This document shows, piece by piece, positions 1-17,106 of a stretch of DNA of 17,491 bases. This DNA is from a virus. Lineage: Duplodnaviria > Heunggongvirae > Uroviricota > Caudoviricetes. Below the pieces are notes generated by a model that was not told the DNA's origin, did no database searches, and saw only the letters and a program-made list of their open reading frames with translations. The stretch spans positions 1 to 17,491 of the IMG/VR virus record IMGVR_UViG_3300029741_000087; one strand, written 5' to 3'. The position numbers and the translations under genes are program-made. Within the stretch, counting starts at the first letter, position 1. Every line of letters starts with the position of its first letter.

Positions 1-603
1 GTACCGGCGAACGGTAAAAGTATTACTCCCGATGATGTGCGTCCGATGATTGAGCAGATGGTGAAGGAGGCGGTAAGCCATATTCCTGTTCCGCGTGATG
101 GTCGTGACTACGATCCGGAAGTACTGCAGAAGGCGGTTCTGGATGCGGTGAGTGCCCTGCCGGCTCCGCAGGACGGGCGTGATGCCACGGCACTGGAAAT
201 ACACCCCGCCATTGACGATCAAAAATCCTTTCCCCGGGGCACGTATGCCACACACCAGGGCGGACTCTGGCGGGCGTATGAAAAAACGCACGGGATGCGG
301 GGATGGGAATGCCTGGTTGACGGGGTGGCGGATATTGACGTCAGCATGACGGGTGAACGGTTGTTCTCTGTGGTGGTCCGGCAGAGCAGTGGCCAGCGTA
401 CGGAAAAAACATTTTCCCTGCCGGTGATGCTCTACCGCGGTGTGTTCAGAGCCGGTGAAACCTACCACCCCGGCGATACGGTGACATGGGGGGGCTCGCT
501 GTGGCACTGCAACAGTATGACCGGTGATAAACCCGGAGAAGCTCATTCATTAGCCTGGACCCTGGCTGCAAAACGTGGGCGGGATGCTGGAGGCGGAAAA
601 TGA
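1..603 (+). CDS. Phage structural protein of unknown function, C-terminal fragment; frame is open from position 1, so the 5' end lies outside the window
   Basis: Frame 1 has no stop from nt 1 to the TGA at 601-603; the stop overlaps the next start (ATGA). Contains two PxPxDGRD-like repeats (PVPRDGRD, PAPQDGRD). Sits directly upstream of the head-tail connector gene. No recognisable family. Confidence 0.55.
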   Translation, partial: VPANGKSITPDDVRPMIEQMVKEAVSHIPVPRDGRDYDPEVLQKAVLDAVSALPAPQDGRDATALEIHPAIDDQKSFPRGTYATHQGGLWRAYEKTHGMRGWECLVDGVADIDVSMTGERLFSVVVRQSSGQRTEKTFSLPVMLYRGVFRAGETYHPGDTVTWGGSLWHCNSMTGDKPGEAHSLAWTLAAKRGRDAGGGK

Positions 604-926
604 CGGCATTACTGACACTGGAAGAGATCAAGGCACATCTGCGTGTCGACCATGACGCGGATGATGACATGCTGATGGACAAGGTTCGTCAGGCTACCGC
701 CGTGCTGCTGGCCTACATTCAGGGCAGCCGGGATAAGGTGATTCGTGAGGACGGTGAACTGATCCCGGGCGAGGCATTAACCCGGATGAAGGGGGCTGCC
801 ATGCGACTGACCGGGATGCTGTACCGGAATCCGGATCTTGCGGAGCGGGAAGAACTGCTTCAGGGGGAGCTGCCGTTTTCTGTTTCCGTGCTGATTTACG
901 ATTTGCGTTGTCCGACGGTGTTATGA
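600..926 (+). CDS. Head-tail connector protein, gp6-like
   Basis: 108 aa; N-terminus LTLEEIKAHLRVDHDADDDML matches the pattern I recall for the HK97 gp6 connector family (recalled, not searched). Start overlaps the upstream stop (ATGA), suggesting translational coupling. Confidence 0.7.
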   Translation: MTALLTLEEIKAHLRVDHDADDDMLMDKVRQATAVLLAYIQGSRDKVIREDGELIPGEALTRMKGAAMRLTGMLYRNPDLAEREELLQGELPFSVSVLIYDLRCPTVL

Positions 927-935
927 GGAGGGGGA

Positions 936-1286
936 ATGGCAATATCTGCAGGTCGTCTGACACAGATGATAAGTGTTCTGAACCCGGTGTTAACCCGTAA
1001 TGCTGCCGGAGAAATGACGGAAGAATGGGTGTCATGCGGGAAAATTCATGCGGATATCCGTGGCAGGAGCAGCCGGGAGCGGATGCAGTCCGGTGCGGAA
1101 ATGGCGCAGGCGGAAATCCGCATCTGGGTGCGCGGTCAGTCCGGTCGGGAAATCACGGCAGCGTCACGACTTCATGTGCTGAGTGGTCCATGGCGTGACC
1201 GGATCCTGAACGTTGTCGGGCTGCCCGTGCCGGATGCGACCGGCGGACGTCTGGAAATTCTCTGTCGGCTGGGAGGGGAAAAATGA
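936..1286 (+). CDS. Head-tail adaptor / head closure protein
   Basis: 116 aa ORF with a GAGGAGGGGG Shine-Dalgarno 6-14 nt upstream of the ATG. Size and position between the gp6-like and gp10-like genes fit a head closure protein. Assignment is by position and size, not by a recognised motif. Confidence 0.55.
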   Translation: MAISAGRLTQMISVLNPVLTRNAAGEMTEEWVSCGKIHADIRGRSSRERMQSGAEMAQAEIRIWVRGQSGREITAASRLHVLSGPWRDRILNVVGLPVPDATGGRLEILCRLGGEK

Positions 1287-1729
1287 TCGAAACCCTGCTG
1301 GATTTTTCGGGGCTGGAGGACATCAGCCGCGATTTGCAGCTTCTGAGTGGTACGGAAAACAACCGGGTGCTGCGTGAGGCAACCCGTGCGGGTGCGAATG
1401 TGCTGAAAGAAGAAGTGGTGTCACGGGCACCGGTGCGCAGGGGAAAACTGCGCCGCAATGTGGTGGTCCTTTCCCGGCGCTCCCGCGATGGCGGGATGGA
1501 ATCCGGTGTCCATATCCGTGGTGTTAATCCGGACACCGGTAACAGCGATAACACCATGAAGGTGGATAACCCGCGCAATGCTTTCTACTGGCGGTTTGTG
1601 GAAATGGGGACCGTGAATATGCCACCGCACCCGTTTGTGCGCCCGGCGTTTGATGTGCGCAGTGAACAGGCAGCGCAGGTGGCGATTGCTCGGATGAACC
1701 GGGCCATTGATGAGGTACTGAGACGATGA
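1283..1729 (+). CDS. HK97 gp10-family phage protein (neck / tail attachment)
   Basis: 148 aa; C-terminal NAFYWRFVEMGT...HPFVRPAFD resembles the conserved gp10-family motif (FLEFGT...PFLRPA) as I recall it. ATGA overlap with the upstream stop. Confidence 0.7.
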   Translation: MIETLLDFSGLEDISRDLQLLSGTENNRVLREATRAGANVLKEEVVSRAPVRRGKLRRNVVVLSRRSRDGGMESGVHIRGVNPDTGNSDNTMKVDNPRNAFYWRFVEMGTVNMPPHPFVRPAFDVRSEQAAQVAIARMNRAIDEVLRR

Positions 1730-2070
1730 CGGAGGCGGATTTGTATCCTCATCTGGCGCATCTTGCCGGCGGGCAGGTGTACCCGTATGTGGTCCCCCTG
1801 CTGGATGGCAGGCCGTCGGTAGCGCTTCCGTGGGTGGTTTTCAGCCTGATTTCATCGGTGTCTGCGGACGTGATGGGCGGGCAGGCGGAGTCCTCAGTGG
1901 CGGTGCAGATAGACGTTTATGCCGGGACTGTGACGCAGGCGCGTCAGATACGTCAGGACGCCCGTGAAGCCATAATGCTGCTGGCCCCGGGATCCGTCAG
2001 TGAAATGCAGGACTATATTCCGGAAAACCGCTGTTACCGTGCAACCCTGGAGTTTCAGGTCACGGTGTGA
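1726..2070 (+). CDS. Tail completion / tail terminator-like protein
   Basis: 114 aa; ATGA overlap with the gp10-like gene; lies immediately upstream of the major tail protein gene. Assignment is positional. Confidence 0.5.
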   Translation: MTEADLYPHLAHLAGGQVYPYVVPLLDGRPSVALPWVVFSLISSVSADVMGGQAESSVAVQIDVYAGTVTQARQIRQDAREAIMLLAPGSVSEMQDYIPENRCYRATLEFQVTV

Positions 2071-2098
2071 CTTTTTCTTTTTTCTACAAAACCCATAC

Positions 2099-2119
2099 CC
2101 CGCCGCGTGCGGGTTTTTT
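2099..2119 (+). terminator. Short GC stem-loop followed by a T-run, upstream of the major tail protein gene (possible attenuator)
   Basis: cccgc (2099-2103) pairs with gcggg (2109-2113), 5-nt loop, then tttttt at 2114-2119. Stem is only 5 bp. Confidence 0.3.
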
Positions 2120-2136
2120 ATTATCAGGAGGCAGAA

Positions 2137-2852
2137 TGTCTGCTTTGTATGAACGCTCACAGCTGACGCAGGTGATGATTTCATCTGCCCCGGCGACTGC
2201 TGAAACTATGGATAAGGCGGAATATCTGCGCCTGGACTGCACCATCAAGGAAGTCCAGTTCACCGCCGGTCAGAAACAGGATATTGATGTGACCACGCTC
2301 TGCTCCACAGAGCAGGAGAATATCAACGGTCTGGGGGCGTCGTCTGAGATTTCCATGTCGGGTAATTTTTATCTGAATCAGGCCCAGAACGCCCTGCGTG
2401 ATGCCTATGACAATGACGCGTTGTATGCGTTTAAGGTGCTGTTTCCGTCCGGTAAGGGCTTTAAATTCCTGGCGGAAGTGCGCCAGCACACCTGGTCATC
2501 CGGTACCAACGGCGTGGTGGCTGCAACGTTCTCACTGCGTCTGAAAGGCAAACCGGTGTCCTTTGTGGTACCGCTGGCGTTTGTGAAAAATCTGGATAAG
2601 ACACTTACCGTGAATACCGGTGCGCTGCTGACAATGTCAGTCAGTGCCAACGGGGGAACGCCGCCGTATAAATACGCCTGGAAGAAGGATGGTCAGCCGG
2701 TTGACGGGCAGACGACAGACACCTTCAGTAAGCCAGGTGCGCAGTCCGCCGATGCGGGGAAATATACCTGCGTGGTGACCGATTCGGCAGAGAAAGCACA
2801 GAGTGTGACGTCTGTTGAATGCACCGTGACAGTGAGCGCAGCCGCCGGATAA
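2137..2852 (+). CDS. Major tail (tube) protein with C-terminal Ig-like domain
   Basis: ATG at 2137 is preceded by AGGAGG at 2125-2130; the track's 2067 GTG start has no Shine-Dalgarno and runs through the hairpin. The C-terminal ~80 aa (PPYKYAWKKDGQPVDG...GKYTCVVTD) is a classic Ig-like fold signature, as found on lambda V-type tail proteins. Position is upstream of the G/GT chaperones. Confidence 0.75.
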
Positions 2853-2866
2853 GGGGATGGGTCATC

Positions 2867-3241
2867 ATGAAAAAGGATCTGAAAACGCTGGCGCTGGCCA
2901 GACTGTCAGGGTTTCGTCATAAAACGGTGAAGGTGCCGGAATGGGGTAATGTCAGCGTGGTGCTGCGGGAGCCTTCGGCAGAGGCCTGGTATCTGTGGCA
3001 GGACGTGCTCAATGGTGATGGAGAGGATGACGATACTCTGTCGGTGGTGGCGAAAACCCGCCGTAACCTGGAAGCGGATGTGACGCTGTTCTGCGATGTC
3101 CTGTGTGATACGGATCTGCAACGGGTGTTCACTCCGGACGACCGTGAGCAGGTGCTGGCCGTCTATGGTCCGGTACATGCCCGCTTGCTGCGTCAGGCAC
3201 TGGAACTGATCGCTGATGCAGAGTCGGTCAGAAAAAAGTAG
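2867..3241 (+). CDS. Tail assembly chaperone (lambda G analogue)
   Basis: ATG at 2867 preceded by AAGGGGA at 2851-2857. About 124 aa, acidic. Sits between the major tail protein and the tape measure, and ends in a slippery heptamer. The track's 2819 start is an upstream extension. Confidence 0.65.
   Translation: MKKDLKTLALARLSGFRHKTVKVPEWGNVSVVLREPSAEAWYLWQDVLNGDGEDDDTLSVVAKTRRNLEADVTLFCDVLCDTDLQRVFTPDDREQVLAVYGPVHARLLRQALELIADAESVRKK
3232..3238 (+). promoter_or_regulatory. Programmed -1 ribosomal frameshift site (A AAA AAG) at the end of the G-like ORF
   Basis: In the G frame the last codons are AGA AAA AAG TAG, so X XXY YYZ is A AAA AAG (3232-3238). The -1 frame is open from 3232 through the ATG at 3265 to the stop at 3544-3546. 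Confidence 0.6.
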
Positions 3242-3546
3242 CCCGCCCGGAAATTCGCTTTCTGATGCGACTTGCGCTCCGTCTGGGGCGCACCTTATCC
3301 GAACTGCGGCACAGCCTGAGTGCGAGCGAGGCGATGATGTGGATGGAGTTCGACAGGATATCCCCGCTGGGTGATGAGCGCGGGGATATCCGTAATGCAC
3401 AGATCGTGAAAGCGGTTTTCGGGGCACAGGGGATGAATGTTGCACTGAAGGACGCCATGCTCTGCTGGGGCGAGGATGAGGATAAGCCGGAGGTGGATCC
3501 GTTTGCGGCGCTGGAAGACGCGCTGAGCCTTGCAGCACAGTCATGA
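3232..3546 (+). CDS. T-like extension of the tail assembly chaperone, expressed as a G-T fusion by -1 frameshift
   Basis: ORF 3265..3546 lies in the -1 frame relative to G and is open back to the slippery site. This G/GT arrangement upstream of the tape measure is conserved in long-tailed phages (established knowledge). Confidence 0.55.
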   Translation, partial: KKVARPEIRFLMRLALRLGRTLSELRHSLSASEAMMWMEFDRISPLGDERGDIRNAQIVKAVFGAQGMNVALKDAMLCWGEDEDKPEVDPFAALEDALSLAAQS

Positions 3547-3554
3547 ATGATGAG

Positions 3555-3575
3555 AACCGCTGAGGCGGTTTTTTT
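3555..3575 (+). terminator. Weak hairpin plus T-run between GT and the tape measure gene (possible attenuator)
   Basis: aaccgc (3555-3560), loop tgag, gcggtt (3565-3570), with T-run 3569-3575; 19 nt upstream of the H start. Confidence 0.3.
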
Positions 3576-3593
3576 ACGCCAGGAGAAAGGTGA

Positions 3594-6500
3594 ATGGCGA
3601 CGTTACGTGAACTGATTATCAAAATTTCGGCAAATTCACAGTCATTCCAGTCGGAGATCCAGCGGGCGTCCCGTATGGGCAGTGAATATTACCGGACCCT
3701 GCAGAATGGCGGACGTCAGGCTGCTGCGGCAGCCAGGGAGCAGTGCCGGGCTCTGGCTGAGCTGAACAGCCAGTTGACGGAAATCCGCGCTTCGGCTGTC
3801 GGAATGACCAGTGCGTTTGCCGGTGCCTTTGCCACCGGACACCTGATTTCGCTGGCAGATGAATGGAGCTCCGTGAATGCCCGTCTGAAACAGGCGTCGC
3901 AGTCATCGGATGAATTTGCGTTATCACAGAAAGTGCTGATGGACATCAGCCAGCGGACAGGCACCGCATTTTCGGATAATGCGACCCTGTTTGCCCGTTC
4001 GGCTGCCTCGATGCGTGAATATGGTTACAGTGCTGATGATGTGCTGAAGGTGACGGAGGCCATTTCGACAGGGCTGAAAATTTCCGGTGCCAGTGCGGCA
4101 GAGGCGGGTTCGGTGATCACCCAGTTCAGCCAGGCGCTGGCACAGGGGGTGTTGCGCGGCGAGGAATTTAATTCGGTCAATGAAAGTGGGGACCGGATCA
4201 TTCGCGCACTGGCTGCAGGCATGGGCGTGGCCCGTAAGGATCTGAAGGCGATGGCGGACGATGGTCAACTGACGGCGGATAAAGTCGTTCCCGCGTTAAT
4301 CAGCCAGCTGGGGATATTGCGTGATGAATATGCAGCCATGCCGGAAACGGTGTCTGACGGGATCACGAAGGTGGAAAACGCCTTTATGGCCTGGGTGGGC
4401 GGCGCGAATGAGGCCAGCGGAGCGACGAAAACGCTCTCCGGCGCACTGAACGGTGTGGCCGGAAATATTGATACCGTGGCAACAGCTGCGGGTGTGCTGG
4501 TTGCTGTCGGGGTGGCCCGGTACTTTGGTAATCTGGCTTCCGGAGCGATGTCTGCCACGGCAGGACTTGTGACCGCTGCACGTAATGAAGTGGCACTGGC
4601 TGAGGCCCAGTTAAGGGGAACGCAGATTGCCACGGCGCGGGCAAGGGCAGCCGTGTACCGGGCTCAGCAGGCTGTGGCGGCAGCCCGCGGGACTGAGATG
4701 CAGATTGCGGCAGAGGCCCGTCTGGCGGTCACACAGGAACGCCTGAACAGAAATATTGCTGCCAGAACCGCCGCCCAGAATGCGCTGAACAGTACAACGG
4801 CGGTGGGCTCACGTCTGATGAGCGGTGCGCTGGGACTGGTTGGAGGCGTACCCGGACTGGTGATGCTGGGAGCTGCCGCATGGTACACGCTGTACCAGAA
4901 TCAGGAGCAGGCCAGGGAGTCTGCGCGCCAGTATGCACTGACGATTGATGAAATCGCGCATAAAACGCCATCAATGTCTCTGCCTGAAGCCTCAGATAAT
5001 GAAGGGCGAACACGGGAGGCGCTGACAGAGCAGAACCGGCTGATTGATGAGCAGGCCAGCCGGGTGAAATCCCTGCAGGAAAAAATCGCCGGGTATCAGT
5101 ATGTGCTGGCTAATCCGGGCTGGACGACCGGTAACGGCTTCATGATAAACCATCTGACATCGGTGAAAACTGTAACGGAAGAGCTTGCTCAGGCAACAGA
5201 GCAGTTTGCTGTTGAGCAGTCCCGTCTGGCACAGATGCAGGAAAAAGCGCAGTCCATTCAGGATGTGCTTGCCGGACTGGAAGAGCGCCGTGTTGTGTTA
5301 ATTCGTCAGCAGGCAGCAGAGCAGAATAAAGCGTATCAGTCACTGCTGGTCATGAACGGTCAGCATACGGAATTCAACCGCCTGCTGGGGCTGGGTAATG
5401 AACTGCTGCAACAGCGTCAGGGACTGGCGAGTGTACCGCTGCGACTGCCACAGGCCACTCTGGATGATAAACAGCAGAGCGCCCTGAATAACACAGAGCG
5501 TCAACTGGCCCTGTCCCGGCTGAAAGGGGAAGAAAAAGAGCGTGCCCGGCTGGGGTATGCGGCGGATGACCTTGGTCTGGTGGGGGATACGTATCAGGAG
5601 GCGAGGCAGCGTTACATCCGTAATTCGATGGAAGCCTGGCGCAATAATGAGGCGAATAAACCCAAATCCCGGGCCGGAAAATCAGGGGCGGAAAAAGCGG
5701 AAGACAGTTTTTCCCGTCTGCTGAAGCAGCAGAAGGAACAACTGGCACTGGCCGGGAAGAATACAGAACTGGCAAAACTGAAATACCAGACCTCGCAGGG
5801 CGAGCTGAAAACCCTGACGGAGATACAGAAGCAGGAGCTGCTGCGCAATGCTGCCCTGATTGACCAGAAGAAAATCCGGGAGCAGTTACGGGCCCGGGAG
5901 GAGACCCTGAAAAATGATAATGCAGACGCAAGGGCATCAAATGACGCTGAGCTGCTGGGGTACGGGCAGGGTGAGCGGGTCCGTGAACGGATGCGGGAGC
6001 TGCAGCAGATTCGTGACGGCTACCGCCAGAAGGATGCGGACCTGCAGTCTCAGTATCAGACAGGGGATATCAGTGAGGATTTTTACAGACAGGCGCTGGC
6101 GCAGAATGCGCAGTATCTGAGTGAACGCCTTAAAGACCAGGAGGCTTTTTATGCCGAATCGGATGCGCAGCGTGCTGACTGGCAGAAAGGGCTGCAGGAA
6201 GGGCTAAGTAACTGGGTGGACAGCGCATCAGATTACGCTTCACAGGCAGCACAGCTTGCGACAGACGGTATCTCAGGGATGGTGAATAACATCACGGAGA
6301 TGCTGAACGGAAATAAAGTGGAATGGCGCAGCTGGGCTGCATCAATCCTGCAGGAAATATCAAAAGTTCTTATGAATGCGGCCATTGTCAACGGCATTAA
6401 GATGGCGGCAAACAGTATGTCCGGTGCAGGAGGATTTTTCGGCAGTATAGGCAACTGGCTGGGTGGCGCGGTGGCAAATGCAAAAGGCGGCGTTTATACC

Positions 6501-6836
6501 TCGGCAAACCTGAGTGCATACAGTAACAGTATTGTGGACACGCCCACGTACTTTGCCTTTGCAAAAGGGGCAGGGCTGATGGGGGAGGCCGGACCTGAAG
6601 CCATCATGCCCCTGACCCGGGCAGCGGATGGTTCACTCGGCGTGCGTGCGGTGGGCAGTATGAACGGCAGTGCGGGTCTGGTGTATTCCCCGGTGTACCA
6701 CATCGCCATTCAGAATGACGGCGCTAACGGGCAGATAGGGCCGGAAGCGGCGGGCACCCTTGTGCAACTGATTGACCAGCGGGTACAGGCGGTGATGTTA
6801 TCCATGCGTCGTGACGGAGGAATGCTGAGTGGATGA
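3594..6836 (+). CDS. H: Tail tape measure protein
   Basis: 1080 aa, Ala/Gln-rich, predicted coiled-coil-like, with a hydrophobic Gly-rich segment. C-terminus (QNDGANGQIGPEAAG...RRDGGMLSG) resembles the lambda H C-terminus as I recall it (NNDGTNGQIGPAAL...RDGGLFSG). Shine-Dalgarno AGGAGAAAGG upstream. Confidence 0.9.
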   Translation: MATLRELIIKISANSQSFQSEIQRASRMGSEYYRTLQNGGRQAAAAAREQCRALAELNSQLTEIRASAVGMTSAFAGAFATGHLISLADEWSSVNARLKQASQSSDEFALSQKVLMDISQRTGTAFSDNATLFARSAASMREYGYSADDVLKVTEAISTGLKISGASAAEAGSVITQFSQALAQGVLRGEEFNSVNESGDRIIRALAAGMGVARKDLKAMADDGQLTADKVVPALISQLGILRDEYAAMPETVSDGITKVENAFMAWVGGANEASGATKTLSGALNGVAGNIDTVATAAGVLVAVGVARYFGNLASGAMSATAGLVTAARNEVALAEAQLRGTQIATARARAAVYRAQQAVAAARGTEMQIAAEARLAVTQERLNRNIAARTAAQNALNSTTAVGSRLMSGALGLVGGVPGLVMLGAAAWYTLYQNQEQARESARQYALTIDEIAHKTPSMSLPEASDNEGRTREALTEQNRLIDEQASRVKSLQEKIAGYQYVLANPGWTTGNGFMINHLTSVKTVTEELAQATEQFAVEQSRLAQMQEKAQSIQDVLAGLEERRVVLIRQQAAEQNKAYQSLLVMNGQHTEFNRLLGLGNELLQQRQGLASVPLRLPQATLDDKQQSALNNTERQLALSRLKGEEKERARLGYAADDLGLVGDTYQEARQRYIRNSMEAWRNNEANKPKSRAGKSGAEKAEDSFSRLLKQQKEQLALAGKNTELAKLKYQTSQGELKTLTEIQKQELLRNAALIDQKKIREQLRAREETLKNDNADARASNDAELLGYGQGERVRERMRELQQIRDGYRQKDADLQSQYQTGDISEDFYRQALAQNAQYLSERLKDQEAFYAESDAQRADWQKGLQEGLSNWVDSASDYASQAAQLATDGISGMVNNITEMLNGNKVEWRSWAASILQEISKVLMNAAIVNGIKMAANSMSGAGGFFGSIGNWLGGAVANAKGGVYTSANLSAYSNSIVDTPTYFAFAKGAGLMGEAGPEAIMPLTRAADGSLGVRAVGSMNGSAGLVYSPVYHIAIQNDGANGQIGPEAAGTLVQLIDQRVQAVMLSMRRDGGMLSG

Positions 6837-7170
6837 GATTAAGACTCTTCACTGGTGTCCCCGGGAAGGGATGCAGGTGACGGAGAAACCGTCGGTGATG
6901 ACGGTGAAGTTTGGCGACGGTTATCAGCAGCGTCGTCCGGCAGGACTGAATGCGCAACTGAAGACCTTTCAGGTGGTTTTTCGGGTGACAACGGATGCTG
7001 AGCGGGAGGCACTGTCCGCGTTTCTGTCATGGCATGGTGGTTACCGGGCTTTTTTGTGGAAGCCCCCGAAACATAACCGGACGGTCAGGGTGGTGTGCCG
7101 GGAGTGGAGTATTACGGATAACGCCCGGTACAGTGATTTCAGTTGCACGATAGAGCAGGTAGTTAGATGA
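6829..7170 (+). CDS. M: Minor tail protein M
   Basis: 113 aa; KFGDGYQQRRPAGLNAQLKTF...HGGYRAFLWKPP...EQVV aligns closely with lambda M (RFGDGYSQRAPAGLNANLKTY...HGGWKSFLWTPP...EQVV) from memory. GTG start overlaps the H stop. Confidence 0.9.
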   Translation: MDEIKTLHWCPREGMQVTEKPSVMTVKFGDGYQQRRPAGLNAQLKTFQVVFRVTTDAEREALSAFLSWHGGYRAFLWKPPKHNRTVRVVCREWSITDNARYSDFSCTIEQVVR

Positions 7171-7255
7171 GAATTATCCTATAAATCATTCTTTAGTGTT
7201 TAGTTGTTAATTATTTTTAATCTGTCTTGTCAGAAAGTGCGAAATCGATCTTGCA

Positions 7256-7275
7256 TTTACATTTTGTTACATAAT
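7256..7275 (+). promoter_or_regulatory. OmpR-box-like sequence in the porin upstream region
   Basis: TTTACATTTTGTTACATAAT resembles the ompF F1 (TTTACTTTTGGTTACATATT) and ompC C1 (TTTACATTTTGAAACATCTA) OmpR sites as I recall them. Lies about 95-115 bp upstream of the porin ATG in a very AT-rich tract (7171-7368). Confidence 0.4.
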
Positions 7276-7368
7276 ATAAATTGAACTAAGAATTTGTATT
7301 AAAATATTTTAATTTTTGTTCATGACATCTGAATGCATGAATAGTTCAGTTTAAATAAGGATTAAATC

Positions 7369-8523
7369 ATGAAAAAAATGACAGTGGCACTTTCTGCTGT
7401 AGCAGTGGCAGTGATGTTTGCTGCGGGGGCGCAGGCAGCAGAAGTTTATAATAAAGATGGTAATAAACTGGATCTTTACGGGCGTGCAACCGCTCTGCAT
7501 TACTTCTCGGATGATAAAGGTAATGACGGAGACCAGACTTATGCTCGTCTCGGCTTTAAAGGCGAAACGCAGATTAATGATCAACTGACCGGATTTGGTC
7601 AGTGGGAATACCAGTTCTCTGGTAATAAAACGGAATCTGAAGGTTCCGCGGGAAATAAAACCCGTCTGGCATTTGCAGGTCTGAGATTTGCAGATGTTGG
7701 TACCATTGATTACGGACGTAACTATGGTATTGCTTACGATGTCGGATCATATACTGACGTACTGCCTGAGTTTGGTGGTGATGGCTGGACGCAGACCGAT
7801 AACTTTATGACGGCCCGAACTTCCGGTGTCCTGACTTACCGTAATACAGACTTCTTCGGACTGGTTGATGGTCTGAATTTTGCGGCGCAGTATCAGGGCA
7901 AAAATGAGCGTGATGACCTTCAGAAGGCTAATGGCGACGGGTATGGTTTCTCGGCCAGCTATGAGTTTGATGGTTTTGGTTTTGTCGCTGCGTATACCAA
8001 GTCAGATCGTACTGATAAGCAGGTTCAGGGGTTGAATGGTACTGCAGATGTTCTTGATCCTGCATCAGGTAAAAAGGTTGGAGAAAAAGCAGTTGACTCA
8101 GGTAGTGTGGCAAAAGGTAAACATGCTGAATTCTGGGGAACTGGTCTTAAATATGATGCCAATAACCTGTATCTGGCAGCAGTGTATTCTGAAACCCAGA
8201 ATATGACGACCTTTGGTGATCAAGGTGTTGCGGATAAAGCTCAGAATATCGAAGCCGTTGTTCAGTATCAGTTTGATTTTGGTCTGCGCCCGTCCCTTGC
8301 CTACCTTCAGTCCCGCGGACAGGATGTTATGGTTGGTGGTGTGAACCATGGCGATCAGGATCTGGTTAAATATATTGATGTCGGTGCGACTTATTACTTT
8401 AACAAGAATATGTCCACCTATGTTGATTATAAAATTAACCTGATTGATGAAAGTGAATTTACCCGGAAAGCCGGTGTTGCGACAGATAATATCGTTGCTG
8501 TGGGTATGACTTATCAGTTCTGA
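7369..8523 (+). CDS. General outer-membrane porin, OmpC/OmpF/PhoE family (phage moron)
   Basis: 384 aa. Cleavable signal peptide [23 protein letters not shown] followed by [15 protein letters not shown]; C-terminal ...VAVGMTYQF with terminal Phe, typical of beta-barrel porins. AAGGA Shine-Dalgarno before the ATG. The gene and its flanks are markedly AT-richer than neighbouring tail genes. Confidence 0.9.
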
Positions 8524-8545
8524 TTATTGCTGATAAGTTAATAAA

Positions 8546-8601
8546 TACGGGCCGTCTGCCCTTACAGGCGGCCTGTATCAATGAAAACACAGTTTTCATT
8601 G
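8546..8601 (+). repeat. Two adjacent stem-loops downstream of the porin stop
   Basis: Hairpin 1: 8546-8577 (tacgggccgtctg / caggcggcctgta, one G-U pair, 6-nt loop). Hairpin 2: perfect 10-bp inverted repeat caatgaaaac / gttttcattg at 8579-8601 with a 3-nt loop. Neither is followed by a U-tract. Confidence 0.4.
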
Positions 8602-8695
8602 GTCACTGCGATCAGCAATTGCCATCTGGCATGTGCTGATTTAACTTTCTGTTATTACCTTTATTGGTTTTATTTTAAATTGGACTTTTATTGTT

Positions 8696-8720
8696 CGGGG
8701 CGCGTCTGCGCCCCTTTTTT
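8696..8720 (+). terminator. Intrinsic terminator closing the porin moron, abutting the L start
   Basis: ggggcgc (8697-8703), loop gtct, gcgcccc (8708-8714), then tttttt at 8715-8720. Confidence 0.7.
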
Positions 8721-8732
8721 ATGGGCGGATAT

Positions 8733-9431
8733 ATGCAGGATATTCACGAAGAAAGCCTGAACGAGTCGGTTAAGTCAGAGCAGTCACCGCGGGTGGTGCT
8801 CTGGGAAATCGACCTGACGGTGCAGGGCGGTGAGCGGTATTTTTTCTGCAATGAGCTGAATGAAAAAGGGGAGCCGGTGACCTGGCAGGGGCGTGAATAT
8901 CAGGCGTACCCGATTGAGGGCAGCGGCTTTGAGATGAACGGAAAGGGCAGCAGTGCCCGCCCGTCGCTGACGGTGTCCAATCTTTTCGGCCTTGTCACCG
9001 GGATGGCGGAGGATTTGCAGAGCCTGGTGGGTGCCACGGTGGTCCGCCGCCGGGTGTATGCGCGTTTTCTTGATGCGGTGAACTTTGTGGCGGGGAATCC
9101 GGAGGCAGACCCGGAGCAGGAGCTGACGGACCGGTGGGTGGTGGAGCAGTTATCAGCGCTGACGGCCATGACGGCCTCGTTTGTGCTGGCGACACCGACG
9201 GAGACGGACGGGGCGCTGTTTCCCGGTCGCATCATGCTGGCGAACACCTGTATGTGGGATTACCGGGGCGATGAGTGCGGGTATAACGGTCCGGCAGTGG
9301 CGGATGAGTTCGACAACCCTACCACGGATATCCGGAAGGACAGATGCAGTAAATGCATGCGCGGGTGTGAGATGCGCGGCATGGCGGTCAATTTTGGCGG
9401 TTTCCTTTCCATCAATAAACTTTCGCAGTAA
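8733..9431 (+). CDS. L: Minor tail protein L
   Basis: Starting at ATG 8733 the protein MQDIHEESLNE...VVLWEIDL...GERYFFCNE...GEPVTWQGREYQ...FGGFLSINKLSQ is near-colinear with lambda L as I recall it (MQDIRQETLNE...FGGFLSINKLSQ). The track's 8691 start is an upstream extension through the terminator. Confidence 0.9.
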   Translation: MQDIHEESLNESVKSEQSPRVVLWEIDLTVQGGERYFFCNELNEKGEPVTWQGREYQAYPIEGSGFEMNGKGSSARPSLTVSNLFGLVTGMAEDLQSLVGATVVRRRVYARFLDAVNFVAGNPEADPEQELTDRWVVEQLSALTAMTASFVLATPTETDGALFPGRIMLANTCMWDYRGDECGYNGPAVADEFDNPTTDIRKDRCSKCMRGCEMRGMAVNFGGFLSINKLSQ

Positions 9432-9441
9432 ATCCCGGTTT

Positions 9442-10185
9442 ATGACACAGACTGAATCAGCGATTCTGGTGCATGCCCGGCGGTGTGCGCCAGCGGAGTC
9501 GTGCGGCTTCGTGATAAGCACCCCGGAGGGCGAACGGTACCAGCCCTGCGTGAATATCTCCGCAGAGCCGGAGGCGTATTTTCGTATTACACCGGAAGAC
9601 TGGCTGCAGGCACAGATGCAGGGGGAGATTGTGGCGCTGGTCCACAGTCATCCCGGTGGTCTGCCCTGGCTGAGCGAGGCGGACCGGCGGCTGCAGATAA
9701 AGAGTGCCCTGCCCTGGTGGCTGGTCTGCCGGGGTGAAATTCACCGGTTCCGCTGTGTGCCGCACCTGACCGGACGGCGCTTTGAACACGGTGTGACGGA
9801 CTGTTACACCCTGTTCCGGGATGCATACCATCTGGCGGGGATAACGCTGCCGGATTTTGTGCGTGAGGATGACTGGTGGCGCAACGGTCAGAACCTGTAC
9901 CTGGACAACCTGGCAGACAACGGCTTTTACCGGGTGTCTCCGTCCTGTGCACAGGCGGGCGATATCCTGCTGTGCTGCTTTGGTTCATCGGTGCCGAATC
10001 ATGCCGCCATTTACTGTGGCAACGGTGAACTGCTTCACCATATACCTGAACAACTGAGTAAACGGGAGAGGTATTCAGAGAAATGGCAACGACGAACGCA
10101 TTCTGTCTGGCGTCACCGCCACTGGTCCGCATCTGCCTTCACGGGGATTTACAACGATTTGGTCGCCGCATCAGCCTGTATGTGA
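9442..10185 (+). CDS. K: Tail assembly protein K (JAMM/MPN plus NlpC/P60 domains)
   Basis: Starts MTQTESAIL as in lambda K. JAMM motif HSHPGGLPWLSEAD (HxHx7Sx2D) and an NlpC/P60-like Cys/His pair (DCYTL, NHAAIY). The track's 9181 start overlaps L and is rejected. Confidence 0.9.
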   Translation: MTQTESAILVHARRCAPAESCGFVISTPEGERYQPCVNISAEPEAYFRITPEDWLQAQMQGEIVALVHSHPGGLPWLSEADRRLQIKSALPWWLVCRGEIHRFRCVPHLTGRRFEHGVTDCYTLFRDAYHLAGITLPDFVREDDWWRNGQNLYLDNLADNGFYRVSPSCAQAGDILLCCFGSSVPNHAAIYCGNGELLHHIPEQLSKRERYSEKWQRRTHSVWRHRHWSASAFTGIYNDLVAASACM

Positions 10186-10763
10186 ACACGGCAGCGGAGG
10201 CCATCCGTGCCCTGTCGCTGCAGGTGCCGGGATTCCGCGGTCAGATGAACGAAGGCTGGTATCAGATACGTATTGCCGGTGAGGATACCGCACCGGAGGC
10301 GGTGTACGCCCGTCTTCACGAACAACTGGGTGAGGGAGCGGTCATCCACATTGTGCCGCGACTGGCCGGAGCCGGGGGAAATGGTGTTTTTCAGGTGGTG
10401 CTGGGGGTTGCAGCGATTGTCGGGTCATTTTTCACTGGTGGTGCAACACTGGCGGCATGGGGCGCAGCCCTGAGTGCCGGAGGGCTGACTGCCACCACGA
10501 TGCTGTTCTCACTGGGTGCCAGCATGATACTGGGTGGTGTGGCTCAGATGCTGGCCCCGAAGGCAAAGACGCCGGAGTATAAAAGTACGGATAACGGTAA
10601 ACAGAACACGTATTTTTCGTCACTGGACAACATGATTGCCCAGGGTAACCCGATGCCGGTGCCTTACGGTGAAATGCTGGTTGGTTCACGACGGATATCC
10701 CAGGATATCAGCACCCGTGATGAGGGCGGAGACGGGAAAGTGGTGGTTATCGGACGGGGATAA
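10083..10763 (+). CDS. I: Tail assembly protein I
   Basis: MATTNAFCLASPPLVRICLHGDLQRFGRRI...NGKQNTYFSSLDNM...VVVIGRG aligns with lambda I (MAATHTLPLASPGMARICLYGDLQRFGRRI...VVVIGR) from memory. Overlaps the 3' end of K. Confidence 0.9.
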   Translation: MATTNAFCLASPPLVRICLHGDLQRFGRRISLYVNTAAEAIRALSLQVPGFRGQMNEGWYQIRIAGEDTAPEAVYARLHEQLGEGAVIHIVPRLAGAGGNGVFQVVLGVAAIVGSFFTGGATLAAWGAALSAGGLTATTMLFSLGASMILGGVAQMLAPKAKTPEYKSTDNGKQNTYFSSLDNMIAQGNPMPVPYGEMLVGSRRISQDISTRDEGGDGKVVVIGRG

Positions 10764-10866
10764 AAATAAAAAAATCCCGCAGAGTTAGCGGAGCTGCGGG
10801 AAGAGATACGAAGATTAACTGTAAGGAGTTATTATTATGTCACAGCAAAAAAAACGGTAACGCAGA
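10764..10866 (-). ncRNA. Candidate small RNA, cassette 1 (predicted from promoter and terminator; not a known family by sequence)
   Basis: Minus strand: TTCACA (10897-10892), 16-bp spacer, TATAAT (10875-10870), predicted start near 10864 at conserved GCGUUACC. Intrinsic terminator: hairpin 10800-10776 then U7 (10774-10768). No plausible ORF. Contains AACUCCUUACA. Confidence 0.5.
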
Positions 10867-10896
10867 GAAATTATAAGCGCCACTGGGATTTTGTGA

Positions 10897-10918
10897 AAAT
10901 GTGAAGAATTTCAGAAAT
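10897..10918. promoter_or_regulatory. CRP-like box (TGTGA-N6-TCAGA), cassette 1
   Basis: AAATGTGAagaattTCAGAaat; left half matches the CRP consensus AAATGTGA exactly, right half is TCAGA versus TCACA. Centre is about 43 bp upstream of the predicted minus-strand start. Confidence 0.45.
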
Positions 10919-10996
10919 TTTTTGCTGCAGAGGTGCAGGGAGCTTGCCGGGTATCTGTGGCAGAAGACAGAAAACATCATGCCGGGGTTAAGGGAT

Positions 10997-11096
10997 AAAA
11001 AAATCCCGCAGAGTCCGGAGACTGCGGGACAGAACCGATGAAGATTAACGTTCAAGGAGTTTTGTTTTTATTGACCCGAAAAAACTGTAACGCCCC
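10997..11096 (-). ncRNA. Candidate small RNA, cassette 2
   Basis: Minus strand: -10-like TATCAT (11105-11100), start near 11094 at conserved GCGUUACAG, terminator hairpin 11028-11005 then U7 (11003-10997). Contains AACUCCUUGAA. The -35 is poor. Confidence 0.4.
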
Positions 11097-11126
11097 GGAA
11101 TGATATCTGCCACGGGAACGTACAGA

Positions 11127-11148
11127 AAATGTGAAGAAATTCAGACTT
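11127..11148. promoter_or_regulatory. CRP-like box, cassette 2
   Basis: AAATGTGAagaaatTCAGActt; same spacing to the -10 hexamer and conserved GCGTTAC as in cassette 1. Confidence 0.4.
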
Positions 11149-11230
11149 TTTCTGTCGCAGGTTTACAGAACGGATGACCGCCAGGGTACCAGTGGCGTAA
11201 ATGAGCAGGATGTTGTGGTGTGGCTGAAGC

Positions 11231-11336
11231 AAAAAAATCTCCCGTAATATCGCCGGATACTGACGGGAGACGAATAGTCACCTTAAGGAGGTCTGATAAT
11301 TATTGCTTTTATTGAGCAAAAAAACTGTAACGCTGC
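11231..11336 (-). ncRNA. Candidate small RNA, cassette 3
   Basis: Minus strand: TATAAT (11345-11340), start near 11334 at conserved GCGUUACAG, terminator with perfect 8-bp stem (11271-11264 / 11245-11238) then U7 (11237-11231). Contains GACCUCCUUAAGG. Confidence 0.5.
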
Positions 11337-11366
11337 GTCATTATAGTGGCTACAGGCAATTGCCGG

Positions 11367-11388
11367 AAATGTGAAGAATTTCAGAAAT
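11367..11388. promoter_or_regulatory. CRP-like box, cassette 3
   Basis: AAATGTGAagaattTCAGAaat; same spacing to the TATAAT at 11345-11340 as in cassette 1. Confidence 0.45.
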
Positions 11389-11404
11389 TTTATTCCGTCA
11401 TGAC

Positions 11405-11436
11405 ACAGGCACCCTCCGGGGTGCCTGTCGTTTTCT
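11405..11436 (+). terminator. Plus-strand intrinsic terminator about 40 nt upstream of the J start
   Basis: Perfect 10-bp stem acaggcaccc (11405-11414) / gggtgcctgt (11419-11428), loop tccg, followed by cgttttct. Confidence 0.5.
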
Positions 11437-11478
11437 GGCATAAACAGATTCAGACATCAGACAGGAGAGGGGGACAGA

Positions 11479-14400
11479 GTGGGTAAAGGGGGCGGCAAGG
11501 GGCACACACCGCGTGAGGCGAAGGACAATCTCAAATCCACGCAGATGATGAGCGTGATTGATGCCATTGGTGAGGGACCGGTGGAAGGTCCGGTGAAGGG
11601 ACTGCAGAGTATTCTGGTGAACAAAACCCCGCTGACGGACACGGACGGTAATCCCGTGATACACGGTGTGACCGCCGTCTGGCGTGCCGGGGAGCAGGAG
11701 CAGACACCGCCGGAAGGCTTTGAGTCCTCCGGGGCAGAAACCGCACTGGGCGTGGAGGTGACGAAGGCAAAGCCGGTGACGCGCACCATCACGTCAGCGA
11801 ACATTGACCGTCTGCGGGTCACCTTCGGGGTACAGTCACTGGTGGAGACCACCTCAAAGGGTGACCGTAATCCCTCTTCTGTCCGCCTGCTGATTCAGCT
11901 TGAGCGTAACGGGCACTGGGTGACGGAGAAGGATGTCACCATTAACGGCAAGACCACCTCGCAGTACCTGACGTCGGTGATTCTGAATAATCTCCCTGAG
12001 CGCCCCTTTAACATCCGGATGGTCAGGGTGACGGCGGACAGCACCACGGACCAGCTGCAGAACAGAACGCTGTGGTCGTCATACACCGAAATCATCGATG
12101 TGAAACAGTGCTACCCGAACACGGCGATTGTGGGGCTGCAGGTGGATGCGGAGCAGTTTGGTGGCCAGCAGCTGACGGTGAACTACCATATCCGTGGTCG
12201 CATCATTCAGGTGCCGTCAAACTATGACCCGGAAAAACGCACCTACAGCGGTATCTGGGACGGGAGTCTGAAACCGGCATACAGCAATAACCCGGCCTGG
12301 TGCCTGTGGGACATGCTGACCCACCCGCGCTACGGCATGGGAAAACGCCTGGGGGCCCCGGACGTGGACAAGTGGGCACTGTATGCCATCGGGCAGTACT
12401 GTGACCAGACGGTCCCGGATGGTTTCGGGGGAACAGAGCCGCGGATGACTTTCAATGCGTACCTGTCACAGCAGCGTAAGGTGTGGGATGTCCTGGGGGA
12501 TTTCTGCTCGGCGATGCGCTGTATGCCGGTATGGAACGGCCAGACGCTGACGTTCGTTCAGGACCGTCCGTCGGATGTGGTGTGGCCGTACACCAACAGC
12601 GATGTGGTGGTGGATGATAACGGCGTGGGGTTCCGCTACAGCTTCAGTGCCCTGAAGGACCGGCACACGGCGGTGGAGGTGAATTACACCGACCCGCAGA
12701 ACGGCTGGCAGACCTCCACGGAACTGGTGGAAGACCCGGACGCCATCCTGCGCTACGGGCGCAATCTGCTGAAGATGGATGCGTTCGGCTGTACCAGCCG
12801 CGGTCAGGCCCACCGTGCCGGACTGTGGGTGATAAAGACAGAACTGCTGGAAACGCAGACGGTGGATTTCACGCTCGGGTCACAGGGGCTGCGGCACACG
12901 CCCGGTGACATCATTGAAATCTGTGATAACGACTACGCCGGGACCCTGACCGGTGGACGCATCCTGTCCATCGATGCCGCCAGCCGTACCCTGACGCTGG
13001 ACCGTGAGGTGATACTGCCGGAAGCAGGGACATCGACGGTGAACCTGATTAACGGCAGCGGTAAGCCGGTGCGCGTGGACATCACTGCACACCCCGCCCC
13101 TGACCGGATACAGGTCAGCGTCCTGCCTGATGGCGTGGAGACATACGGTGTGTGGGGACTCTCCCTGCCGTCACTGCGTCGTCGCCTGTTCCGCTGTGTT
13201 TCCATCCGGGAAAACACGGACGGCACCTTTGCCATCACGGCAGTGCAGCACGTACCGGAAAAAGAAGCCATCGTGGATAACGGGGCCACCTTTGAGCCGC
13301 TGTCCGGTTCACTGAACAGCGTCATCCCGCCGGCAGTGCAGCACCTCACGGTGGAGGTGAGTGCCTCAGACGGCCAGTATCTGGCGCTGGCGAAATGGGA
13401 CACGCCGCGGGTGGTGAAGGGCGTGCGCTTCAGTCTGCGCCTGACCAGTGGCAGTGGTGAAAACAGCCGCCTGGTGACCAGCGCTATCACTGCCGACACG
13501 GAGCACCGTTTCAGTGGCCTGCCGCCCGGGGAATACACCCTGACGGTCAGGGCGATAAACAGCTACGGCCAGCAGGGCGAACCTGCCACCACCACGTTCC
13601 GGATTAACGCACCGGCAGCACCGGCCAGCATTGAACTGACGCCGGGGTATTATCAGATAACGGCGGTCCCGCATCTTACGGTGTATGACCCGACGGTACA
13701 ATTTGAGTTCTGGTTTTCGGAGGCAAAAATCGCAGACACATCTCAGGTGGAAACCTCTGCCCGTTATCTGGGGACAGGCAGCCAGTGGAGTGTCTCCGGC
13801 CCGCACATTAAGCCGGGGAAGGATTTCTGGTTTTATGTGCGCAGCGTCAACCTGGTGGGGAAATCTGCGTTTGTGGAAGCCAGTGGCCGGGCCAGCAATG
13901 ATGCGGAAGGGTATCTGGGGCTGTTTCGGGAAAAGATAGGAAAACTGCATCTGGCACAGGGGATGTGGGAGCTGATTGATAACAGCCAGCTTGATGATGA
14001 GATGGCGGAGATGAAGACCACCATCACAGAAACCCGCAATGAAATCACGCAGACGGTCAGTAAAACCCTGGAAGACCAGAGCGCCACCATACAGCAGATA
14101 CAGCGGGTGCAGACAGACACAAATAACGACCTGGCTGCGCTGTACATGCTGAAGGTGCAGAAAACAAAAAACGGCATTCCGTATGTTGCCGGTATTGGTG
14201 CGGGGATTGAGGATGCTGATGGCCAGCCCCTGAGCAATATACTGCTGCAGGCGGACCGTATCGCGATGATTAACCCGGAGAACGGCAACACCACGCCGCT
14301 GTTTGTGGCGCAGGGGAATCAGCTGTTCATGAACGATGTGTTCCTGAAGCGACTGTTTGCGGTGAGCATCACCTCGTCCGGCAATCCCCCGACGTTCTCC

Positions 14401-14946
14401 CTGACGCCGGAGGGCAGGCTGACGGCCCGCAATGCGGACATCAGCGGACATATCAGTGCGAACTCGGGCACGCTGAATAATGTCGTGATAGCGGAGAACT
14501 GTACGATAAATGGCACGCTGAAAGCGGAGAACATTATTGGTGATCTTGTGAAATGTGCAGGGGTGGCTTTTCCGGTGGATGGTAGTTACCTTGCGAACGG
14601 TACACGAACGCTGACGGTGTATGACGATCACAGCTTTGACCGGCAGATTATAATCCCGCCGATAATCTATGTCGGGTCAAAACAGGAATCCCGCACCAGT
14701 AATGACATCTGGACAGAGTGCTTCCTGCATGTTGATCAGAACGGACGCCGGATTTATTCAGGCAGGTCAGTGACAGAGCCGGGAATTTTCAGCGGGATCA
14801 TCGATATGCCAGCCGGTCATGGTCATATCACCCTGAGTTTTACCGTAAGTTCACGACGTCAGAACGGGAGTTTTGGCAGTTCACGTATCAGTAACCTTCA
14901 GGCGATAGTGGTGAAGAAAAACAGCGCGGGGATCAGTATCCGCTGA
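11479..14946 (+). CDS. J: Host specificity / central tail fibre protein J
   Basis: 1155 aa from a GTG start. N-terminus [22 protein letters not shown] and long internal stretches (for example [35 protein letters not shown]) are near-identical to lambda J as I recall it. The C-terminal ~150 aa are more divergent. Confidence 0.95.
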
Positions 14947-15144
14947 ACATCGCGCCCCGGGATTGCCGGAAGGAGACAAAAACCGTACAGTATGCGCGGG
15001 TGCCTTTGGCTGATGGCCGGAGGGAACACCTGAAGGCCGGATGTGAAAAGGCCCCGGACAAACATTCATGTTTAACCCGAGGCCTGACCATTCATCCTAA
15101 GCAAGTGAAAGGTTAGCGCCTCTCCGTAAAAGGAGCAAGCGTTT

Positions 15145-15285
15145 ATGTCGCAAAAACCGTTAAAAACCACCGTGATTTGTATCACGGTAGTGCTCATTAT
15201 CTGGATCACCCACACTTCACTGTGCGAGTTCCGGTTCCGGATAGCGGGCGCGGAGATTGCGGCGTTCTTACAGTGTAAGCAGTAA
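15145..15285 (+). CDS. Hok/Gef-family type I toxin (small membrane peptide); not in the ORF track because it is shorter than 60 aa
   Basis: 46 aa: MSQKPLKTTVICITVVLIIWITHTSLCEFRFRIAGAEIAAFLQCKQ. One transmembrane stretch followed by SLCEFRFR...EIAAF, matching the Hok signature (Hok of plasmid R1: ...[23 protein letters not shown]) from memory. AGGAG at 15131-15135, 9 nt before the ATG. Confidence 0.7.
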   Translation: MSQKPLKTTVICITVVLIIWITHTSLCEFRFRIAGAEIAAFLQCKQ

Positions 15286-15293
15286 GAAACCGT

Positions 15294-15316
15294 GGCGGGG
15301 GAGAATATCCCCCGCC
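15294..15316 (+). other. Perfect 8-bp GC stem-loop immediately after the hok-like stop
   Basis: ggcggggg (15294-15301) / cccccgcc (15309-15316) with a 7-nt loop and no U-tract; could be an mRNA 3' structural element. Confidence 0.4.
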
Positions 15317-15380
15317 GACCGGTTGCTGAGGGTGGTCAGCCGGATGGCACCGTTTTAACACCAACAAACCACAAATATTA

Positions 15381-15416
15381 CCGCAGGCCGGGAAACCGGT
15401 CCTGCGGTTTTTTTAT
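15381..15416 (+). terminator. Intrinsic terminator between the hok-like gene and stf
   Basis: ccgcaggccgg / ccggtcctgcgg stem with one mismatch, GAAA tetraloop, then T-run 15408-15416. Confidence 0.7.
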
Positions 15417-15427
15417 GGGGGAAATCC

Positions 15428-17065: not shown

Positions 17066-17106
17066 AGCGCATCATCTTTCAGACATGTAACCGGGAGGAC
17101 TTACAG

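Follow-up and report, generated by a model that had tools for sequence, protein, structure and literature searches.

What switches on a porin gene that lies in the midst of phage tail genes? Porins set the permeability of the outer membrane to antibiotics and nutrients and serve as receptors for many phages and colicins. The gene considered here is carried by a 17,491-nt stretch of viral DNA (IMG/VR record IMGVR_UViG_3300029741_000087, positions 1 to 17,491; hereafter the window), the tail-gene module of an Escherichia coli lambdoid prophage. The porin unit is a moron as defined in PMC8065619: an extra gene between adjacent conserved phage genes (gpM and gpL), of deviant GC content and with its own promoter region and terminator. 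A preliminary description had drawn attention to a 20-mer, TTTACATTTTGTTACATAAT, upstream of the phage porin, which it described as closely resembling the OmpR-binding sites of ompF and ompC, and had proposed that the porin is wired into host EnvZ/OmpR osmoregulation. The 20-mer is exactly where it was said to be, on the + strand, in a 198-bp spacer before a real phage-borne porin gene. As we describe below, it is a conserved and isolated OmpR-type box, from which phosphorylated OmpR (OmpR~P) may activate the porin promoter at about position -51; we put the probability of this reading at roughly 0.5.

To score the box, a log-odds matrix was derived from the seven classical OmpR sites (C1-C3 and F1-F4), each confirmed in the K-12 ompC or ompF upstream sequence. 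In a scan covering 7171-7368, as the preliminary description had suggested, and the remainder of the window, TTTACATTTTGTTACATAAT reached 21.1 bits. This exceeds all seven training sites (5.5-20.2 bits, scored with themselves included) and ranks first of ~35,000 positions on both strands of the 17.5-kb window, the next unrelated match scoring 13.2 bits. When the AT-rich spacer was randomised 5,000 times with its dinucleotide content kept, this score was never attained (mean 11.9, standard deviation 1.9, maximum 20.5). The likeness to the ompF and ompC sites had been described accurately, with identity to F1 at 17 of 20 positions and to C1 at 15 of 20. The box agrees with the repeat GTTACATTTTGTTACAT from OmpR chromatin immunoprecipitation with exonuclease treatment (ChIP-exo; PMC5438342) at 16 of 17 positions and with the consensus GTTACANNNNGTTACA at all but one, and its 20 bp fit a tandem of two half-sites of the GTTACANNNN type. 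It contains, at 7265-7272, the sequence TGTWACAW, a motif from Salmonella OmpR ChIP sequencing that is required for binding at tviA (PMC3586657).

The specificity of the matrix was controlled on 80 enterobacterial porin loci. It recovered C1-type sites in OmpC orthologues (-170/-180 from the ATG) and F1/F2-type sites in OmpF orthologues (-199/-179); the upstream regions of chromosomal OmpD/NmpC-clade genes in this set gave no match above about 11 bits. Since that clade gave no stronger match and the phage porin shares no more than 58% identity with K-12 OmpC and 55% with K-12 OmpF, the box did not come with a recent copy of host ompC or ompF. Common descent with the ompC C1 region was considered and dropped: 17 consecutive bases are shared, five of them outside the box (local score 36 versus a shuffle maximum of 35). 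The CTTGCA flank common to ompC C1 is not conserved in other alleles, so the extended identity is probably a coincidence. Three overlapping two-mismatch matches to GTTACANNNNGTTACA, partly palindromic (GTGACGGACTGTTACA), occur at 9792-9818 within the gpK coding region; they score low with the full matrix and probably reflect chance.

The box has been maintained while its surroundings diverged. Alleles with 79-100% protein identity were collected from assemblies and viral contigs, and 19 unique sequences were aligned. All alleles of at least 81% identity sit at the same gpM-gpL junction, and their upstream regions are homologous but patchy, with flank divergence of up to 45%. In every allele the best matrix match falls at the same aligned position (14-21 bits), which in the tail alleles is -110 to -123 from the ATG. 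Eight of the ten columns of the first half-site are invariant, compared to 30% of flank columns. Where the flanks of a lineage have diverged by 32-45%, the box still scores 14-21 bits versus 2.5-8 under simulated neutral drift (P 0.001-0.03 per lineage). Conservation of the box is thus well beyond the neutral expectation, indicating purifying selection. The second half-site alternates between GTTACA (F1b type) and GAAACA (C1b, C2b and F2b type), both of which, by comparison with the classical sites, are established OmpR half-site forms. We consider it highly probable that 7256-7275 is a functional site for a regulator of the OmpR family.

The same allele variation bears on which member of the family that would be. 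The sequence TACATTTTGTTACA at 7258-7271 agrees at 14 of 14 positions with the RstA box TACATNTNGTTACA defined by genomic SELEX (PMC4117788), and is the sole match with at most one mismatch in the window, where 0.05 would be expected. RstA, the output of the PhoQP-RstBA cascade (low Mg2+, acid), shares targets with OmpR through overlapping sites (PMC7315122, PMC4117788), and might be the relevant regulator here, either by itself or vying with OmpR for these bases as it does at csgD and ompF. However, the tandem TACA box has one or two mismatches in four of the eight box variants, the commonest included, with some alleles carrying TACG or TGCA, and RstA is reported to bind less tightly than the family's other regulators (PMC4117788). 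In the commonest divergent lineage (11 loci), GAAACA breaks the second TACA, giving two mismatches to the RstA box, yet the OmpR score is still 21.0 bits. Because of this lineage, the allele variation favours OmpR over RstA. We consider RstA unlikely to be the relevant regulator, although input from PhoPQ-RstBA is a serious alternative or complement to OmpR; OmpR probably regulates the gene.

The position of the box suggests how OmpR might act. Promoter scoring gave TTGAAC-N18-TATTTT, just downstream of the box, as the best + strand candidate in the window and in most alleles. The hexamers are 18 bp apart in the window; two lineages have lost 2 nt and have a 16-bp spacer. A transcription start site (TSS) near 7317 would place the centre of the box at about -51.5 (-50.5 to -52.5) and its span at -61 to -42. 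Two other arrangements were tried and rejected. If the box took the part of C1 in an ompC-like arrangement (TSS about 7356), C2- or C3-like sites would be missing and the TSS would coincide with the Shine-Dalgarno sequence. A promoter of the form (A/G)TGACA-N17-TTCA(G/A)T, which recurs in promoter scoring, has a -10 hexamer without the essential A at position 2 and a TSS ~11 nt from the ATG, inside the Shine-Dalgarno sequence. A search for CRP sites (TGTGA-N6-TCACA, up to three mismatches) found none in 7171-7367, with a total count at chance level, and no convincing CRP site or second OmpR site was seen around the conserved AAAGTG block upstream of the box.

We propose that the box is a single high-affinity site for a dimer of host OmpR~P and forms part of an autonomous promoter of the porin moron, which would comprise this promoter, the porin gene, a structured 3' untranslated region (UTR) and a terminator. 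Abutting a weak sigma-70 promoter, OmpR~P bound near -51 is thought to recruit RNA polymerase through its alpha subunit. In a lysogen, porin transcription would then be independent of the phage late genes and would occur only when OmpR~P is present.

The same location, by contrast, would suit a sequence that is no regulator site at all in vivo, since UP elements occupy -60 to -41. The box might be UP-element-like or curved DNA, a nucleation point for H-NS or IHF, or simply co-inherited sequence, with the porin expressed constitutively or through late transcription. The 23% GC of the spacer and the further invariant islands AAAGTG, TGACA and AGTTC are compatible with this explanation, and the alleles are related, which means that the conservation tests are not fully independent. 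However, none of the composition-matched shuffles reached the score of the box, the substitutions in the second half-site stay within known OmpR forms, and the homologous position in nmpC (see below) is occupied by OmpR in vivo; the moron's own promoter region and terminator further argue against dependence on late transcription. We regard a non-regulatory box as improbable, and as the weakest of the explanations considered.

If OmpR is the activator, how closely would the porin follow osmolarity? Phased 20-mers around the box, starting at 7216, 7236 (7236-7255, immediately upstream), 7276 and 7296, scored 0.2, -17.6, 0.0 and -1.0 bits, respectively. The box is thus isolated, and three contiguous phased sites of the ompF/ompC type were not found, although the genuine C2 site also scores poorly with the matrix. 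A distal repressing site of the F4 type (~260-380 bp upstream) was not seen either, there being no matrix match above 9 bits in 6800-7170, which is gpM coding sequence. Because the promoter has a lone near-consensus site rather than a graded three-site array, expression is predicted to be OmpR-dependent but weakly graded: it would be switched on at low levels of OmpR~P and would lack the reciprocal low- and high-osmolarity behaviour of ompF and ompC. The proposal of EnvZ/OmpR osmoregulation in the preliminary description therefore holds in part. The OmpR-type site is near-consensus and conserved, and its nmpC counterpart lies under a ChIP-exo peak. Dependence of the porin on OmpR is likely; graded regulation in the style of ompF and ompC is not predicted from one isolated site with no F4-like partner.

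The sign of regulation is best considered alongside nmpC, through which host control of a phage porin by OmpR is already known. This gene of the cryptic prophage DLP12 was previously characterised as an OmpR target (Coll et al. 1994, as cited in PMC5438342). ChIP-exo re-detected it as repressed, with a 2.4-fold increase in an ompR deletion strain under NaCl stress and a peak 43 nt downstream of the TSS (PMC5438342). At PnmpC, CRP activates while OmpR, IHF and MprA repress, and the TSS has been confirmed by 5' rapid amplification of cDNA ends (PMC11677980). We calibrated the ChIP-exo coordinates (supplement of PMC5438342) on ompF, giving a shift of +777. After conversion, the nmpC peak lies 58-118 nt upstream of the ATG. 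Within this interval, at -90 to -71, is a weak box of 10.5 bits, CTTACATCTTGAAATAATCA, which the alignment identifies as the homologue of the 7256-7275 box. Lc-type viral alleles (69%) have a weak box at -90/-91.

By analogy with nmpC, OmpR~P might bind the box in the window but repress the porin, by occluding or roadblocking a promoter upstream of or overlapping it, in which case porin expression would fall at high osmolarity or low pH, like that of ompF. The nmpC precedent (PMC5438342, PMC11677980) and the homology of the two regulatory regions are consistent with this idea, as is a -35-like TTGTCA/TTGACA at 7226-7231 in several alleles. An nmpC-like upstream promoter is nevertheless disfavoured, as no conserved -10 hexamer was found upstream of the box, or overlapping it, in the tail alleles, and the gpM stop codon is only 85 bp from the box. 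Furthermore, nmpC is shorter than the window by 3 nt from the box to TTGA and by ~11 nt from TTGATT to ATATTT. With these deletions, nmpC cannot use the promoter proposed for the window and fires instead from a different, upstream, CRP-dependent one; the tail alleles retain the 5-bp and 16-18-bp spacings that fit activation. Repression of the porin by OmpR thus seems rather unlikely, and the geometry proposed for the window predicts a sign opposite to that of nmpC, where the box is downstream of the TSS. The leader block CATGAATAG...GTTCAG.T.AAAATAG, whose counterpart in the window is found just before the ATG, occurs a second time in the nmpC upstream region, at -165 to -123. The extra copy coincides with the mapped promoter and TSS region of nmpC, which suggests that the nmpC promoter arose by leader duplication.

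Activation from about -51 has a number of points to contend with. In nmpC, the sole homologue with experimental data, OmpR represses from a site ~43 nt downstream of the TSS, and in the window the same bases make a perfect RstA box. Prediction of OmpR sites is unreliable, many ChIP targets having no motif (PMC3586657), and the region is so AT-rich that H-NS or other nucleoid proteins might prevail. Of the 12 consensus positions, the candidate promoter agrees with only 8 (~5.6 bits), and a strict sigma-70 consensus scan returned no + strand promoter, its matches being no more frequent than in shuffled sequence. The TSS at about 7316-7318 and the ~52-nt 5' UTR are predicted, not mapped. All of these weigh against activation. 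The weakness of TTGAAC-N18-TATTTT, typical of activator-dependent promoters, accounts for its being missed by the strict scan. The analysis establishes the site, with its statistical strength, conservation and isolation, and the anatomy of the moron (Table 1); OmpR occupancy, the promoter with its TSS and the sign of regulation are inferred.

Table 1. Features of the window, with positions counted from its first letter
Feature	Position	Strand	Remarks
Tape measure gene	3594-6836		Pfam
gpM	6829-7170		Pfam; stop codon 7168-7170
Invariant island AAAGTG	7234-7239	+	Upstream of box; 19 alleles
OmpR-type response-regulator box TTTACATTTTGTTACATAAT	7256-7275	+	94 nt upstream of porin ATG
Tandem 10-bp half-sites of the box	7256-7265; 7266-7275		TTTACATTTT; GTTACATAAT
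Invariant island TTTACAT	7256-7262		19 unique sequences
Invariant or nearly invariant TTGAA	7281-7285		19 alleles; next base C or T
Candidate -35 TTGAAC	7281-7286	+	Putative; 5 bp downstream of box
Invariant 8-mer AATATTTT	7303-7310		All alleles
Candidate -10 TATTTT	7305-7310	+	Putative; in AATATTTT, invariant in all alleles
Conserved (A/G)TGACA	7322-7327	+	Invariant TGACA 7323-7327; 5' UTR under the favoured promoter model
Conserved block CATGAATAGTTCA	7336-7348	+	Invariant AGTTC 7343-7347; 5' UTR under the favoured promoter model
Shine-Dalgarno AAGGA	7357-7361	+	AAGG invariant across alleles; 7 nt before porin ATG
Porin gene	7369-8523	+	384 aa; signal peptide; PEFGG L3 motif; between gpM and gpL, late-gene strand
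Structured 3' UTR	8524-8696	+	Helices 8545-8558/8565-8578, 8579-8588/8592-8601, 8610-8616/8635-8641
Intrinsic terminator GGGGCGC-GTCT-GCGCCCC + T run	8697-8724	+	7 G-C pairs; terminator scan; conserved in tail alleles; 8 nt before gpL ATG
gpL, gpK, gpI	gpL ATG 8733; gpI end 10763		Pfam; tail genes after porin
gpJ	11479-14946		Pfam; a tail fibre gene also identified by Pfam

The anatomy of the moron is clear from the DNA. The porin (Pfam Porin_1, E 5.9e-144) has its closest chromosomal relatives among OmpD/NmpC-type genes (66-70% identity; 251 of 368 residues identical to K-12 NmpC) and by this comparison belongs to the Lc/NmpC/OmpD clade; RefSeq names it 'ompC' (WP_000738905.1). The spacer from the gpM stop to the porin ATG (7369) has 23% GC overall, and windowed GC content is 55-65% in the tail genes, 25-32% in the upstream spacer and 39-49% in the porin gene. 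The gpM-porin-gpL order is found in prophages with different tape-measure families. The segment 6800-8700 has a 100% identical counterpart in the chromosome of strain N51, and 92 of 5,426 complete E. coli genomes, including many Shiga-toxin-producing E. coli, contain it at a coverage of at least 80%. About 200 of the 5,426 have a tail-located phage porin of the same family, again with many Shiga-toxin producers. Among deposited phages, a megablast search matched gpM alone and a protein search returned Lc/NmpC-type porins only, at no more than 69% identity. No description of this tail-located porin or of its promoter was found in the searchable literature, and no allele in a reference enterohaemorrhagic E. 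coli strain with TSS data was seen among the matches listed. A search with gpJ to infer the phage receptor gave phage 1720a-02 as the best match of its C-terminus (98.8%), which carries no receptor information.

Copies outside the tail genes were also observed. One allele, at 79%, retains a 15.6-bit box and part of the 3' end of gpM but lies in an IS66/Rop context in place of tail genes, so the moron was mobilised as a unit. Matches were obtained at 99 places on plasmids; the ~75-160-kb plasmids listed bear more distant copies of the porin (72-74% DNA identity).

The 3' end of the moron is better conserved than its 5' region (73% versus 60% column identity). RNAalifold predicted three helices plus the terminator in the 3' UTR, with 46 pairs, 11 of which have compensatory changes. 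An invariant single-stranded segment, TTATTACCTT (8652-8661), has AAGGTAATAA as its complement; the ribosome-binding region of ompF reads GAGGGTAATAAATAATG, and its ribosome-binding site (AGGGTAATAA) is complementary to TTATTACCTT. The 3' UTR aligns in part with the K-12 nmpC 3' region, in which PMC8065619 mentions the small RNA IpeX as a repressor of OmpC and OmpF. Although Rfam gave no meaningful family for the 3' UTR at gathering or permissive thresholds, it probably encodes an IpeX-like 3'-UTR small RNA. The strong terminator lies inside the tail operon, so the late transcript can reach gpL-gpJ only by read-through, presumably by Q-type antitermination.

These elements can be assembled into a more speculative scheme, in which the moron is a 'porin swap' cassette. 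The lone OmpR site would switch on the phage porin, and the IpeX-like small RNA from the same transcript would silence the host porins, so that a lysogen would replace OmpF and OmpC just when the host would make them; a few indels relative to nmpC would have inverted OmpR control from repression to activation. We think it doubtful that the whole scheme is correct. If it were, the display of phage receptors (superinfection exclusion), permeability to antibiotics and surface antigenicity would all be altered.

Some observations concern other parts of the prophage. In N51, it carries downstream of the window (N51 sequence 31343-37511) genes for a protein with a YadA C-terminal domain and for a 1,330-aa S6-family (SPATE-type) peptidase, and its integration site adjoins an ompW remnant near trpA. 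A Hok/Gef-family toxin gene is annotated by RefSeq at about 15148-15288, after gpJ and before the tail-fibre gene (N51 sequence 28349-28489; approximate coordinates). Rfam identified no hok/sok RNA there, and translation at the mapped position yielded no clean ORF. In the ~700-nt gap without annotated gene between gpI and gpJ, three copies of TGTGAAGAA(T/A)TTCAGA occur at 10900-10915, 11130-11145 and 11370-11385 (spacing 230-240 bp), each a CRP-like palindrome with one mismatch. Tandem Repeats Finder detected no array in this gap, so that any longer repeat unit must have diverged.

Under the RefSeq label 'ompC' it goes unnoticed that this is an additional porin, borne by a phage and equipped with a control region of its own. 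Should the box act in the predicted way, lysogens would express an extra porin at the command of host EnvZ/OmpR, which would bear on antibiotic resistance through porin loss, on phage host range and on studies of the OmpR regulon in these strains. The cassette would also be a clear case from nature of a moron gaining a consensus site for a host regulator, and the comparison with nmpC would illustrate how small indels can shift one and the same operator from where it represses to where it activates. The advance is incremental, because OmpR control of a phage porin was established for nmpC.

Of the known systems, nmpC and lc (of phage PA-2) are the nearest to the window, being lambdoid-phage morons with porins of the same clade. 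The regulatory region of nmpC is homologous, with the box and with counterparts of the (A/G)TGACA and CATGAATAGTTCA blocks in its leader (GTGACATC and AATAGTTCA), and its structured 3' region is partly homologous and ends in a similar terminator. However, nmpC and lc are encoded on the opposite strand, in the interval from Q to the lysis genes, whereas the window porin is in the tail region on the late-gene strand; the box is of consensus strength in the window (21.1 versus 10.5 bits in nmpC); and the nmpC promoter is CRP-dependent, whereas the window spacer has no CRP-like match. What sets the window apart is thus its tail location, the strength of its site and a geometry that would predict the opposite sign of regulation.

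The ompC and ompF promoters share with the window the recognition sequence and, for the candidate promoter, weak -35 and -10 hexamers typical of activator-dependent promoters. A 5-bp gap separates the proximal site from the -35 (putative in the window) in all three (C3, TCGTG, then TTGGAT in ompC; F3, CACGG, then TAGCGA in ompF), and C3 and F3 are centred at about -50.5, compared to near -51.5 for the box on the predicted TSS. They differ in having three contiguous phased sites, plus distal F4 in ompF, where the window has one site and no distal repressing site. The strongest site is proximal in the window, whereas the proximal C3 and F3 are the weakest of their arrays (leave-one-out scores 3.6 and 1.4), and the 5' UTR is predicted to be ~52 nt versus ~80 in ompC and ~110 in ompF.

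Promoters activated from a single OmpR site resemble the predicted layout of the window. The csgD promoter has one, centred at -49.5. There, the OmpR site overlaps an RstA site (PMC4117788). The dtpA (tppB) gene is activated from a single OmpR site with a ChIP-exo centre at -46.5 (data of PMC5438342), and on the predicted TSS the box in the window would likewise fall in the ~46-52 bp range. Both csgD and dtpA are chromosomal, with start sites that have been mapped and binding that has been demonstrated, whereas for the window all but the sequence itself is prediction. Cis-acting ompF mutations described by Slauch and Silhavy in 1991 (cited in PMC5438342) are said to give OmpR-dependent constitutive expression, stronger OmpR sites uncoupling expression from osmolarity. 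Those were laboratory mutations in a three-site array; the window would represent the same concept in a natural, single-site promoter.

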